Source: Candidatus Anoxychlamydiales bacterium (lineage in GTDB: Bacteria > Chlamydiota > Chlamydiia > Chlamydiales > SM23-39). Taken from it: DNA of 41,005 nt. Within the stretch, counting starts at the first letter, position 1. Every line of letters starts with the position of its first letter. The position numbers and the translations under genes were made by a program. Positions 36,558 to 40,179 of this stretch are shown here, piece after piece. The notes under the pieces are model-generated. The model worked only from the letters and a program-made list of their open reading frames with translations. It was not told where the DNA came from and made no database searches. The stretch covers positions 1 to 41,005 of the forward strand of contig JAAKFJ010000001.1 in NCBI GenBank assembly GCA_011064745.1, in the 5' to 3' direction.

Positions 36558-38093
36558 TCATTTTTTTGTCAAAAAAACTTGTTCATAAATAGCATATGGC
36601 TTTTTATAATAACCTGCCCATTCATTGTCTCCATAGGAAAAATGCCACCATTCTCCGTCGAATGGGGCAAATCCAGCTTGTACCATAATTGATCTTAGTA
36701 GCAGCCGATTTTTTTGTTGAACATCTGTGATCTGTTTTGAAAAAGGTTTTATTTTTTCGCTATCGCTAAAATCTGCTATTTTAGTGCCCATATCAAGTGT
36801 TTTACCTTCAACTTGAATAGTCAGATCAATTGCACCTCCAGTTGGGTGTCCAGCAACTTTGGGGACAGCTATCAATTGGTGAACCATTTCAAATAACTCT
36901 TCTTCTTCTAAAAAATCATATTTCTGTTTCATTAAATCACACTGTTCACAAAAATATTTTTGTTGAACATCAGGATGCCGATAAGCATAGACAAGTAAAA
37001 GTTTGGCGTTAGGTAGAACCTTTTTGAGGAAATCAGAGGTTTTTTTTAGCATTTGAATGCAACTTTTGCGAAGGAAAAAACTCTTTTTTGTATATGCATA
37101 CATATCAGATTGTTGATATCTAGCTAATACCTCTGGTAAATATTGCGCAATGTCAAGAAGCTCTTCTTCACAATCTTTTATAAGAATATCTTTTAAATCT
37201 CTATAACATACCATATTTTTTAACGAAGTTAATAATTCTAAATTATCATTTGTTATAATGTCTTTCCCAGCTTGTAGTTTGTAAGGACGAGCATCTTCGA
37301 GGGCTATATCCTTTTCATTCCATTCAAAAGGTATAAATCTGATAGTGATTTGACCTTTTGTAAATGATGGTTTTTCTATTCTAAGCATTTCACAAACATT
37401 TTTTTGAAAACTTTTTAAGTTATCTTCATTTTTGTAATACAGATCCTCATCATTGGGTAATAAAAAAACAATGTTTATACTATTTCCAGGCTTGAATTTG
37501 TTTTCTTCAAGAATTTTACGAATAAGAAAATAACCTTCCAAATATCGAAGAGTAGAATAAGATTTTTTTATTGATATATTAGATCTAGGAGGTTCTTTTG
37601 CAAGCTTCTGTGCACTTGCCTTCGGAATAAAGAATCGCTTTTCCCATATAACATCATTAATATATTTTTTTAGTTCTTGTGAGTTGCTCTTTATAAATTG
37701 AAAAAAATCGGCTGAATATAGAAATTTAATATCAGGGCATTTAAGATTTTTAATTTTTTGTATTTTTGATGATATTCTTAATTTTGTCTTATCACATTTT
37801 TGATTAAGTAATAACCATTTTTCAAGATCATAAAGAAAAAATGTAGGGTCCCCACATTTAGGTTCGTCTCTTATGGGTCTTATCAGATCATCTCGTAAAT
37901 ATTTAAACCAATCAACTCTGAGCTCTTTTTCAATGAACCAGGTGATCACTTGCGGATTAGATAATTGTTGTATTTCATCTATTAATTGCTTTTTAGATTT
38001 AATTATTGGACGGAATTGAACTAAAAGTTTAAGTTGATCATCCTCTTTAATATTGAGGGGATCGTTATTTTTTATTTTAGATATTTTAGACAT
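36558..38093 (-). CDS. Two-domain protein: unknown N-terminal domain (aa 1-300) fused to a VanX/DdpX-type zinc D-Ala-D-Ala dipeptidase (M15D)
   Basis: The C-terminal domain has 'LLLVYAYRHP', 'GHPTGGAIDLT' (H416, D423) and 'NRLLLRSIMVQAGF..EWWHF' (E481, H484). Ligand spacing (7/58/3) is identical to VanX H116/D123/E181/H184 as I recall them. An AAGGAG Shine-Dalgarno lies upstream. Confidence 0.85.
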   Translation of the reverse strand: MSKISKIKNNDPLNIKEDDQLKLLVQFRPIIKSKKQLIDEIQQLSNPQVITWFIEKELRVDWFKYLRDDLIRPIRDEPKCGDPTFFLYDLEKWLLLNQKCDKTKLRISSKIQKIKNLKCPDIKFLYSADFFQFIKSNSQELKKYINDVIWEKRFFIPKASAQKLAKEPPRSNISIKKSYSTLRYLEGYFLIRKILEENKFKPGNSINIVFLLPNDEDLYYKNEDNLKSFQKNVCEMLRIEKPSFTKGQITIRFIPFEWNEKDIALEDARPYKLQAGKDIITNDNLELLTSLKNMVCYRDLKDILIKDCEEELLDIAQYLPEVLARYQQSDMYAYTKKSFFLRKSCIQMLKKTSDFLKKVLPNAKLLLVYAYRHPDVQQKYFCEQCDLMKQKYDFLEEEELFEMVHQLIAVPKVAGHPTGGAIDLTIQVEGKTLDMGTKIADFSDSEKIKPFSKQITDVQQKNRLLLRSIMVQAGFAPFDGEWWHFSYGDNEWAGYYKKPYAIYEQVFLTKK

Positions 38094-38095
38094 AA

Positions 38096-38812
38096 TTATT
38101 CTCCTTCTTGTTTGTTAAAAACTAATTTACAAAGTTTATTTGAAACAATCTCGAGAGGATCTATGATTTTGATCTTTGGGTTATTTCTAGAAAAATTGTT
38201 CATCAGGACAGATAGTTCCGTACAACCAAGTAAGATTCCATCGATATTTGGATCTTTTTTAATACTTGATAAAATAAAATTTTTGAGACATCTACGATCT
38301 TGAAAAGAAAAGACTCCGCTTAATATTTTTTTTATCAACCCTTCTATCCACTGTAGATCTTTCGGTGACAGAAACTTAGTTTTTGCAAAATTGTAAAGAC
38401 CTTTAAGCTTTGATGTTTTAGTGCAAAGAACCAAAACTTTAGATAGATTTTGTTCCAATATAAATGTTTTTGTTTCTCTAATCAAGTCGATCAGTTTACT
38501 TCGGTAAGTCTCATTGATAAAGCCATGAAGAGTATTGCAAGCAATTGTAATATAATCCATACCACTATTGTTTAGAAAATCTAAAGCTTCTTTAAGTTGC
38601 TTAGCCACTCTCTTTTCATCTTGCTCAAAAGAGAGTGGTTTAAGCATTTGAGCAAACGGGTAGTTCAACAAAATTATTTTTGGAAAATCAAAATCATTAA
38701 TACATTTATATTTTTTTTGGCAGATTGTGATAATTTTTTGCATAAGTAAAACACCTGCCATGGGTCCTGCCCCGCCAATGATCCCAATTGTTTTTTTTCT
38801 TTTATTTTGCAT
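38096..38812 (-). CDS. Asp/Glu/hydantoin-family (PLP-independent, two-thiol) amino acid racemase, aspartate-racemase-like
   Basis: 'IGIIGGAGPMAG', catalytic Cys motifs 'ITIACNTLH' (C92) and 'ILLGCTELS' (C197). 238 aa. An AGGAGG Shine-Dalgarno is embedded in the end of the upstream gene. Confidence 0.85.
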   Translation of the reverse strand: MQNKRKKTIGIIGGAGPMAGVLLMQKIITICQKKYKCINDFDFPKIILLNYPFAQMLKPLSFEQDEKRVAKQLKEALDFLNNSGMDYITIACNTLHGFINETYRSKLIDLIRETKTFILEQNLSKVLVLCTKTSKLKGLYNFAKTKFLSPKDLQWIEGLIKKILSGVFSFQDRRCLKNFILSSIKKDPNIDGILLGCTELSVLMNNFSRNNPKIKIIDPLEIVSNKLCKLVFNKQEGE

Positions 38813-38814
38813 AT

Positions 38815-40179
38815 CTAATCCTCCTGAATTTGTTTGGCATAAGCTTTTTGAGAATCGATCTGTCTCCCTATCATATAACCAATAAAGCTTAGGGATATTG
38901 TCAGCACTTCTTTAGGAATTGGCACAGAGATAAATCGGAAAACACCAAAACCTATAGCTCCCGAAGCCATAGATAAATAAGCTCCAAGACGCGATGGATT
39001 TTTTGAGAGCAAAGCTGCAATAATTGGGACAAATAGGATGCAAACAGAAAGCTCATAAGCAAGCATCAACATGGTAACAACATTATCAAATATATAAACA
39101 AGACCAAGAGATCCAAGACCTGTTATTAAGGTTAGCATTCTGGATATCCTGACTTGGTTTTTTTCTGAGATTTTTTTTGAAACTAGAAAATCATATGATA
39201 GATTTGAACCTATAGAACAAAGAATGGAATCTGCTGTTGATATTACTGCCATAAAGATAGCCCCCATAAATAGAGTTGCAACAAGCGGATTTGTTAGAGC
39301 TTTGACAGATTCAATTAGAATACTTGCATTACCCAAAGCTTGAATACCTAATTTTTTTGCGAGGACACCAAAATAAATAGCAATGCTAGAACTCGCTAAA
39401 AGAAGAATTCCAGCAACTATTGCCGAAGCGGAAATTACTTTTGGTTTTTTTGCTGCAAAACATCTTTGTCCCATATCCTGTTCGATGAGCATGAAAAGAA
39501 GGGGCATAAAAAGCCAAGTTACCCATGGGACTGATGAAATTTCCATGTTTTGGGATACTTGCGGATTAGATATCGCTATGTTAGAAAAATTAATAGAAAA
39601 AAATGCAAAACCTAATGTGATTAGAATAAATAAGGCTTGCAATATATCAGTATTTACAACGGCTTTTAATCCGCCCATGACAGTGTATGCTATTAGTATA
39701 GCCCAGAAAAGAATAAATATAATTGGCGATTGCAAATTCATACCGATAAAAAATTTTTGAGCAGCAATTCCTTGAGCTACCAAAATAAAAAACAATGCCA
39801 CAATTGATAATCCAGAAGCTAAAAATCGTTGATGACGAGATTTATAAATTTTTTCAAAAATTTCAGCTATTGTAGAAATATTTAATTTTCGTAATTTTCC
39901 TCCAAAGCCCATGCCAAGAGCAAATAGACCCAGACATGCTCCTAGAGGATAAAAGAGGACAATCCAGCCTTTTTGATAAGCTTCTTGAGCAGCACCTAGA
40001 AGAGATCCTCCTCCAACCTGGGTTGCCAAAAGGGTTAAGCTCAGTTGAAAAAAATTAAGCTTTCTACCCATTAAAAAATAATCATCATTTGTCTCAACGT
40101 CTTTGGATGAACGCTTTCCTATCCAAATATAGATACTCCCCAATAGAGCTATCATTACTAAAAAAAATGGAATATTCAT
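38815..40179 (-). CDS. Sodium:solute symporter family (SSS; PutP/PanF-like) transporter
   Basis: About 12-13 TM helices. N-terminal signature 'DYFLMGRKLNFFQLSLTLLATQVGGGSLLGAAQEAYQKGW' is typical of SSS. Substrate cannot be determined from the sequence. Confidence 0.85.
   Translation of the reverse strand: MNIPFFLVMIALLGSIYIWIGKRSSKDVETNDDYFLMGRKLNFFQLSLTLLATQVGGGSLLGAAQEAYQKGWIVLFYPLGACLGLFALGMGFGGKLRKLNISTIAEIFEKIYKSRHQRFLASGLSIVALFFILVAQGIAAQKFFIGMNLQSPIIFILFWAILIAYTVMGGLKAVVNTDILQALFILITLGFAFFSINFSNIAISNPQVSQNMEISSVPWVTWLFMPLLFMLIEQDMGQRCFAAKKPKVISASAIVAGILLLASSSIAIYFGVLAKKLGIQALGNASILIESVKALTNPLVATLFMGAIFMAVISTADSILCSIGSNLSYDFLVSKKISEKNQVRISRMLTLITGLGSLGLVYIFDNVVTMLMLAYELSVCILFVPIIAALLSKNPSRLGAYLSMASGAIGFGVFRFISVPIPKEVLTISLSFIGYMIGRQIDSQKAYAKQIQED

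Follow-up and report, generated by a model that had tools for sequence, protein, structure and literature searches.

We describe here an operon that, on balance, is probably induced by histidine starvation, imports a stereoisomer or derivative of histidine and converts it to L-histidine. It lies on the minus strand of a 41,005-nucleotide stretch of DNA from a Candidatus Anoxychlamydiales bacterium (assembly GCA_011064745.1, contig JAAKFJ010000001.1, positions 1 to 41,005 of the forward strand; G+C content 30.7%), which we refer to as the window. The predicted operon has five parts: a promoter, a leader open reading frame (ORF) rich in histidine codons, a transporter of the SSS family, a two-thiol racemase, and a fusion of an unannotated N-terminal domain (the N-domain) to a VanX-like M15 peptidase domain. 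The proposal is carried by the leader and by the near absence of histidine from the proteins encoded behind it. Related loci and proteins are cited below by our own handles, with the prefixes L and P respectively.

The three structural genes are tightly packed. The transporter gene (38815-40179, 454 amino acids), the racemase gene (38096-38812, 238 amino acids) and the N-domain::M15 fusion gene (36558-38093, 511 amino acids) are all ORFs on the minus strand, separated by gaps of 2 nucleotides each, and the racemase and fusion genes have their own Shine-Dalgarno sequences (AGGAGG and AAGGAG, respectively), each 7 nucleotides ahead of the ATG. An earlier note, made from the sequence of the window alone, had described the trio with these positions, gaps and ribosome-binding sites, and all were reproduced on re-reading. 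The trio is kept together in relatives at 87%, 79% and ~74% identity, one relative having a different upstream flank, and on this layout the three genes form a genuine operon. An identical protein is on record from a Candidatus Anoxychlamydiales metagenome-assembled genome. Whilst the observations of the earlier note were thus confirmed in full, its interpretation was supported only in part; it had missed the leader ORF and promoter (40334-40537), the independence of a 295-residue domain within the fusion protein, and the avoidance of histidine.

The leader ORF (MKVSKTNISSKSFDLTKDSTNLFIIFSFNSFFSHSHHHHLIH; 40334-40462, minus strand) consists of 42 codons and a stop, with a Shine-Dalgarno sequence, AGGAG, at 40474-40470. 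It terminates in SHSHHHHLIH, six of the final ten codons (40363-40337) being CAT, and no other HHH run is found in any of the six reading frames of the 41-kb window. A sigma-70-type promoter is predicted upstream (40508-40537, minus strand), with TTGACA at 40537-40532 and TATAAT at 40513-40508 separated by an 18-nucleotide spacer, so that 12 of 12 consensus positions are matched; the same pair of hexamers is present in L001 and L020, and near variants in L002 and L004. A short stem-loop, GAGAC-ACTAT-GTCTC (40479-40493, minus strand; columns 55-69 of the A5 alignment), follows the promoter, ahead of the ribosome-binding site of the leader, and its pairing is retained as GAGAG/CTCTC in L020, with both arms altered, and as GGG/CCC in L004. 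This element could be a hairpin at the 5′ end of the mRNA or an operator. Downstream, a spacer of 154 nucleotides (40180-40333, minus strand), U-rich at its beginning and with predicted stem-loops, runs from the leader stop codon to the transporter start. A 9-bp hairpin (AGUCUUUUG...CAAAAGACU) was also noted inside the leader ORF at about 40402-40425 of the window (minus strand; A5 columns 120-143), in the KSFDLTKDS codons. It recurs in each of the five leaders of the Anoxychlamydiales type, where one compensatory change is seen, and may explain the conservation of that stretch of the peptide.

Leaders of this kind are a constant companion of the racemase operon. They precede it in 13 of 13 loci of the clade that have upstream sequence, the named loci being the window, L001, L002, L004, L020, L030, L013, L008, L015, L037, L038 and L039, of which L037 is the complete genome of the cultured Protochlamydia naegleriophila (locus LN879502.1:2124266-2138925). 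The arrangement recurs in each of the related racemase operons examined, down to 36-40% protein identity. The common features are a ribosome-binding site of its own, a C-terminal histidine cluster within 2-5 codons of the stop, and a U-rich tract after it. The C-termini read SHSHHHHLIH in L001, SHSHHHIIHLH in L002, SHSHHHSIHTH in L004, SHSHHHHINLH in L020, SHSHHHTIHIL in L038, FHSPHHHEHLAH in L030, FHFSHHHHSC in L013, HRHHHHHHISH in L015, HPSFHHEHPAH in P. naegleriophila and RHHSHHSFHSC in L039, whilst L008 carries two tandem leader ORFs upstream of the racemase (L008:3170-3560) ending in FSFHHHGHSAH and FFSSHHHEHIAR. The distance from leader to operon is 144-178 nucleotides in nine loci, 279 in L039 and 39 in L038. 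No His-rich leader was found upstream of 13 paralogous loci that are truncated or of a type containing a GNAT acetyltransferase. When non-redundant loci amounting to 278.6 kb were read in six frames (557,000 codons), 35 HHH runs were counted, of which 10 are the leaders and 25 are background, and chance cannot account for the runs in the leaders. In short, the ORF is small, has a ribosome-binding site, carries a cluster of cognate codons towards its 3′ end and recurs ahead of orthologous operons, as expected of a leader.

The encoded proteins, by contrast, are almost devoid of histidine. In the window there is 1 histidine in the 454 residues of the transporter, 1 in the 238 of the racemase, none in the 295 of the N-domain and 4 in the 216 of the M15 domain, these last including both zinc ligands; the operon as a whole has 6 in 1,203 residues (0.50%), compared to an average of 1.83% in the 28 other ORFs of the window. 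Ten N-domain orthologues controlled by a leader contain a single histidine in 3,097 residues (0.03%), whereas in twelve leaderless N-domains the share is 2.14% (Fisher p = 5e-20), and for the remaining 19 amino acids the ratio between the two groups is just 0.82-1.25. Histidine counts in the N-domain family are bimodal, with 26 of 119 full-length representatives having none and 16 having one. The transporter has 0.25% histidine over six orthologues. Depletion of the cognate amino acid is a recognised signature of proteins that are made when that amino acid is limiting. Taken with the leader, it suggests that translation of the operon is intended for times of histidine starvation, which in turn argues that it supplies histidine rather than consuming it.

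The racemase is of the PLP-independent, two-cysteine kind. It matches the Pfam family Asp_Glu_race (PF01177; 2.1e-13, 51 bits against a cut-off of 31), and the two thiols picked out by the earlier note, C92 and C197, correspond in alignment to the catalytic pair C82 and C194 in the aspartate racemase (AspR) of Pyrococcus horikoshii (1jfl, 6e-17). The fold, the catalytic cysteine pair and the CNT.H / GCTE motifs are shared with that enzyme and with RacX and YgeA. The cysteine pair is kept in 10 of 10 members of the clade, which has the motif [YF]PF[AST][EQD]ML, and 445 homologues were found at E<1e-20, those with an organism name being nearly all from Chlamydiota. The window enzyme differs from aspartate racemase in its score, which is below the TIGR00035 cut-off (79.4 against 93.1 bits), in the His-leader operon in which it sits, and in the exchange, in 10 of 10 clade members, of the P-D-R of AspR for [EQD]-M-L (D47-R48 becoming M-L) and of K164 for leucine. 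R48 and K164 presumably bind the side-chain carboxylate of the substrate; given their replacement, specificity for Asp or Glu is unlikely. The closest relatives are the archaeal aspartate racemases and the RacX/YgeA group, broad-spectrum enzymes that racemise many neutral and basic amino acids, and a preference of the window enzyme for histidine is inferred from its context. The known histidine racemases are DapF-like. Two of them, CntK from Staphylococcus aureus, which feeds staphylopine synthesis, and HisR from Fusobacterium nucleatum, resemble the window racemase in being cofactor-independent, two-thiol enzymes, and the reaction they carry out on histidine is the one proposed here; their fold is that of DapF, however, whereas the window enzyme has the Asp/Glu-racemase fold and a histidine activity that is so far a proposal.

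The transporter covers positions 1-405 of the 406 in the Pfam SSF profile (PF00474; 4.6e-31, 108.5 bits against a cut-off of 22.8) and reaches no NCBIfam equivalog (panF, 69.8 against 328; PutP, 55.1 against 515). Its nearest solved relatives are the choline transporters CHT1, and members of the SSS family are importers. Orthologues at 43-46% identity are tied to the racemase in co-directional, reversed-order and divergent arrangements. The gene content of the operon varies. The order transporter, racemase, N-domain, with no M15 domain, is seen in L004 and L020; racemase, N-domain, transporter in L030; racemase and N-domain alone in L008, L015, L037 and L039; and transporter and racemase alone, behind the leader, in L038. 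In L013, a Parachlamydiaceae metagenome-assembled genome (MAG), racemase, N-domain and M15 domain are three successive separate genes; the 511-residue protein of the Anoxychlamydiales is therefore a fusion of adjacent genes.

The M15 domain (residues 296-511; 36558-37208, minus strand) matches Pfam Peptidase_M15 (PF01427; 4.9e-19, 69.3 bits against a cut-off of 27) over residues 362-500, within an M15-like region of approximately 292-511. H416, D423, E481 and H484 align with H116, D123, E181 and H184 of VanX (1r44, 1.3e-7) and D441 corresponds to D142, whilst R372 (‘YRHP’) is matched to R71 (‘YRP’) by reading of the motif, since the alignment begins at residue 401. In VanX these positions supply the His-Asp-His zinc ligands, the catalytic Glu and the transition-state Arg. 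The claim that every catalytic residue of VanX is kept with the same spacing, and that the C-terminal part of the protein is an M15 domain with its zinc ligands in register, therefore holds, and Pfam profiles likewise agree with the SSS, racemase and VanX-like assignments made earlier. In common with VanX of Enterococcus, DdpX of E. coli and the MEROPS M15D family, the domain has the PF01427 fold, the zinc ligands, the catalytic Glu, the Arg71 and Asp142 equivalents and a length of ~215 residues. It differs in falling below the equivalog cut-offs (DdpX, PRK10178, 61.8 against 176; dipept_VanX, 47.2 against 320; vanXY, 18.6 against 250), in having Ala in place of VanX S114, in its fusion to an unrelated 295-residue domain, and in its context, which lacks vanH/vanA and the ddp ABC transporter and includes relatives fused to CntK-like or HisG domains. 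On profile evidence it belongs to a subfamily distinct from VanX and DdpX. The M15 domain was found in only 2 of 10 distinct lineages of the racemase operon and is missing from most related operons, and on this distribution it is accessory and predicted to be dispensable. The idea of a defence system, raised by TIR, SLOG, NUDIX and CdiA_C neighbours of metagenomic M15 loci, was dropped for the chlamydial operon, as PADLOC recognised neither the three proteins of the window nor two relatives that carry M15 fusions. One M15 relative, P0018, is fused to a SLOG/LOG domain.

These findings bear directly on the model put forward in the earlier note, in which the operon salvages or remodels D-Ala-D-Ala, other D-dipeptides or muropeptides, the transporter brings in D-amino acids or D-dipeptides, the VanX-like domain splits dipeptides of the D-Ala-D-Ala type, the racemase interconverts the Ala, Asp or Glu set free, and the dipeptidase would oppose the MurC-Ddl fusion encoded in the same window unless its substrates were imported or other D-dipeptides. 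That fusion is indeed present, at 2693-5155, adjoining FtsW and MurG, and its presence fits such a model, as do the fully aligned catalytic residues, the above-threshold M15D match and an Asp/Glu-type racemase with both thiols. We nevertheless consider this model unlikely. The M15 domain lies far below the VanX and DdpX cut-offs and has lost S114, most orthologous operons do without it, and the AspR residues that we presume to bind the acidic side chain are replaced in the racemase. SSS carriers are not known to transport dipeptides. The model also leaves unexplained the His-rich leader, the His-free proteins and the associations with HisRS, HisG, CntK and histidine ammonia-lyase (HAL) described below. 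The general theme of D-amino acids is still plausible; it is the opposition to MurC-Ddl through D-Ala-D-Ala or muropeptides that is disfavoured by the histidine signals, the accessory nature of the M15 domain and the failed equivalogs.

The steadier partner of the racemase is not the M15 domain but the N-domain (residues 1-295; 37209-38093, minus strand), and of the 511-residue dipeptidase fusion described in the earlier note only the C-terminal part stands as a peptidase, the remainder being an independent family. It occurs as a standalone gene beside the racemase in L004, L008, L013, L015, L020, L030, L037 and L039, has no match in Pfam, NCBIfam or PADLOC, and aligns with standalone proteins of ~300 amino acids. 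In a library clustered at 50% identity, a profile search matched 275 cluster representatives, including 102 with E<1e-30; a word-indexed search with the N-domain profile returned 10 proteins, and the locus scan of a genome collection with a 13-sequence alignment reaches only relatives that retain the LPNDE motif. W93, Y179, E186 and E216 are invariant in the family, and LPNDE..YY and RPY nearly so. A separate 295-residue gene, L010:1137-2024, had been suspected of membership and was found not to belong.

An AF2 model of the N-domain from a 122-sequence alignment is of alpha/beta type (pLDDT 87.7, pTM 0.86; the shallow model had a pLDDT of 68). The only solved structures that Foldseek placed above 0.6 probability are the class Ic catalytic domains of the aminoacyl-tRNA synthetases (aaRS) TyrRS and TrpRS, and the resemblance is weak (E>=5e-3, TM<=0.39); the shallow and deep models both gave weak matches to TyrRS/TrpRS and to pantothenate synthetase. 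When the 122-sequence profile was compared with PDB sequences, just a chance match to PsaD was returned, and hhalign gave a probability of 0.2 against a provisional version of the M. jannaschii TyrRS sequence. The segments LYDL.AW and Y-x3-Q-x2-E resemble the amino-acid-binding motifs LADLHAY and Y-x3-Q-x2-D of TyrRS. The family consensus contains neither a HIGH nor a KMSKS motif. Cyclodipeptide synthases likewise lack both, and their structures were not among the top 50 Foldseek matches. With the structural, profile and hhalign comparisons all weak or empty, assignment of the N-domain to either the aaRS or the cyclodipeptide synthases was rejected as unproven, and the resemblance is kept as a lead.

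A second, paralogous type of operon was encountered in the same family, in which an N-domain that does contain histidine is accompanied by a RimL-type GNAT (Acetyltransf_3), a class I methyltransferase and a convergent MFS transporter, and which has no His-rich leader. It is represented by L012, L014, L016, L017, L021-L024, L026, L028 and L031 (for example L021:4905-8548), from Rhabdochlamydiaceae, other Chlamydiales and one MAG labelled Verrucomicrobiae. Fusions of the N-domain to GNAT are found in P0079, P0085 and P0110.

Links to histidine also appear independently of the leader. The N-domain is fused to HisRS-like domains in P0084 and P0116. The locus of P0084 (L032) reads racemase, N-domain::HisRS-like, aromatic amino-acid lyase and MFS, with a divergent SSS gene upstream, and the lyase has an ASG triad and a Ser-His pair, which we take to be the signature of histidine ammonia-lyase. 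The window itself encodes, at 22019-23716 on the minus strand, a lyase of the same aromatic amino-acid type (PF00221, 1.3e-123) that is 57% identical to it and has the same ASG triad and Ser-His pair and a hydrophobic, signal-peptide-like N-terminal extension; this window lyase may serve the operon as a distant functional partner. L032 is the single racemase/N-domain locus without a His leader, and a near-perfect inverted repeat of ~75 nucleotides per arm (L032:4925-5090) fills its divergent SSS/racemase intergenic region. Relatives of the M15 domain, for their part, are fused to CntK_N (16 proteins) and to HisG (6 proteins) and adjoin genes for HisRS and CntK-like proteins. Since CntK racemises histidine for the synthesis of staphylopine, these partners and the Asp/Glu-type partner in the window amount to two unrelated racemase folds paired with the same M15 subfamily. 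The fusions to CntK-like and HisG domains are carried by metagenomic contigs (L003:1951-5485, L005:5793-8324 and L010:2788-9450), one relative of which is labelled Candidatus Roizmanbacteria, and their operons hold a HisRS gene, a GNAT, a gene of the Trp_repressor family and, in one case, a TIR-methyltransferase.

The same associations might be read in the opposite direction, as the biosynthesis of a small molecule containing D-His, such as an opine-type metallophore similar to staphylopine or a dipeptide-like metabolite. The racemase would make D-His, the aaRS-like N-domain would couple it, a GNAT and a methyltransferase would decorate it and the transporters would move the product. The role of CntK-type racemases in staphylopine synthesis, the N-domain paralogues in operons with GNAT, methyltransferase and MFS genes, the weak class Ic aaRS-like fold and the HisRS-like fusions can all be accommodated. 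A pathway that consumes histidine is not expected, however, to consist of His-free proteins behind a leader of histidine codons, CntL- or CntM-like genes are present in none of the loci examined, and SSS proteins are importers. The combination of leader, transporter and racemase alone in L038 is also difficult to reconcile with it, and we regard this scheme as improbable.

A more ambitious interpretation, which is doubtful, is that the N-domain founds a new enzyme family that descends, like the cyclodipeptide synthases, from class Ic aaRS and that acts on histidyl-tRNA or histidyl-adenylate, within an operon for both salvage of D-His and damage control. The transporter would import D-His and the racemase would make L-His from it, whilst the N-domain would strip D-His from tRNA-His and the M15 domain would degrade mis-made D-Ala-D-His. 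The leader would then sense not only starvation but also ribosomes stalled by D-His-tRNA. Such a scheme would explain why the N-domain occurs free-standing, fused to HisRS-like domains and next to GNAT genes.

Considering all of this together, histidine supply under starvation provides the best account of the operon. When charged tRNA-His is in short supply, ribosomes stalling at the histidine codons of the leader would allow more expression of the genes downstream, following the logic of hisL, and the task of the operon would be to restore L-histidine. The transporter would import a histidine stereoisomer or derivative, most simply D-histidine, given that L038 has the leader, the transporter and the racemase alone, and the racemase would turn the imported substrate into L-histidine. 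The N-domain, and the M15 domain where present, would act on the same pool, either freeing histidine that is bound in a D-configured conjugate or dipeptide, or clearing by-products of D-histidine such as D-Ala-D-His.

Several points weigh against this proposal. Part of the leader peptide beyond the His run is kept, as FS.H..HHH.H..H, so that the peptide itself could be functional. No canonical terminator was found in minimum-free-energy folds of eight leader-spacer regions or in scans of the window, L015, L030 and L004; Rfam has no match in 36300-41005 (E<=1); and RNAalifold, applied to the five aligned leaders, predicts hairpins with a negligible covariation term of -0.32 kcal/mol. The 39-nucleotide spacer of L038 is too short for classical attenuation, which favours, for some lineages at least, a mechanism that is translational or depends on Rho. 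In view of the folding, terminator, Rfam and RNAalifold results, classical attenuation is not claimed. Depletion of histidine in the transporter is weak evidence, since one orthologue without a leader has just 2 histidines in 459 residues. We know of no enzyme of the Asp/Glu-racemase fold that favours histidine, a histidine ammonia-lyase in a variant operon would consume histidine, and a source of D-histidine within a eukaryotic host is not obvious.

The first two of these points raise the question of whether the small ORF encodes a functional His-rich peptide that is bound or processed by the downstream enzymes, for instance a metal binder or a precursor that undergoes modification. Conservation of the motif past the bare His run in distant loci and the failure to find a terminator would both fit, and M15 enzymes are zinc-dependent peptidases. 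Yet the N-terminal two thirds of the peptide show no conservation between distant loci, the operon includes no enzyme class known for peptide modification, and Asp/Glu-type racemases use free amino acids. The tandem leader copies of L008 fit a regulatory element, and a functional peptide leaves unexplained why it is the leader-linked N-domains alone that are His-free. We therefore think it very unlikely that the peptide is the product that matters, and return to histidine-responsive control of a supply operon as the interpretation to be compared with known systems.

The clearest precedent is hisL of Escherichia coli and Salmonella, which likewise is short, translated and marked by consecutive histidine codons near its 3′ end, and lies directly upstream of genes for histidine supply whose products are poor in the cognate amino acid. 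The window leader differs in preceding a transporter and a racemase rather than biosynthetic genes, in its occurrence in Chlamydiota, and in having no demonstrable terminator/antiterminator or Rfam match, quite apart from the short spacer of L038. Within the phylum, trpRBA and ytgCR of Chlamydia trachomatis are under control based on tryptophan codons. There too the expression of a chlamydial amino-acid salvage operon is tied to codons for the limiting amino acid, although it concerns another amino acid, other genes and other lineages, and the histidine system is a prediction from sequence. Neither this unit nor the N-domain family, nor any histidine leader from Chlamydiota, was described in the literature that we searched, and no characterised three-gene precedent came up there, in agreement with the earlier note; the paper on the Anoxychlamydiales does not discuss histidine. 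Known kinds account for the regulatory principle and for three of the four protein folds, whilst the gene content, the phylum of occurrence and the His-free branch of an unannotated family appear to be new.

Two further genes of the window deserve mention. An 828-residue ankyrin-repeat protein is encoded at 7673-10159, a candidate for the type of effector used by intracellular bacteria in interactions with the host, and an 897-residue acyltransferase/AMP-binding fusion at 16462-19155 resembles lysophospholipid acyltransferase/acyl-ACP synthetase of the Aas type.

In conclusion, amino-acid starvation governs chlamydial persistence and host dependence, and to our knowledge tryptophan is the only amino acid for which a codon-based salvage circuit is known in chlamydiae. 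If the proposal is correct, the operon would represent a second such circuit, extending across the Anoxychlamydiales, the Parachlamydiaceae and other Chlamydiota, and its presence in the cultured P. naegleriophila makes it directly testable. The results provide a lead to histidine metabolism for a family that is so far unannotated and comprises at least 275 sequence clusters, and the His-purged, leader-linked branch of that family is an unusually clean case of selection against a cognate amino acid. A VanX-like peptidase subfamily is also linked to histidine racemases in metagenomic contigs of the candidate-phyla-radiation type. More broadly, this suggests an unrecognised pool of, or role for, D-histidine (or D-His peptides) in bacteria with reduced genomes.

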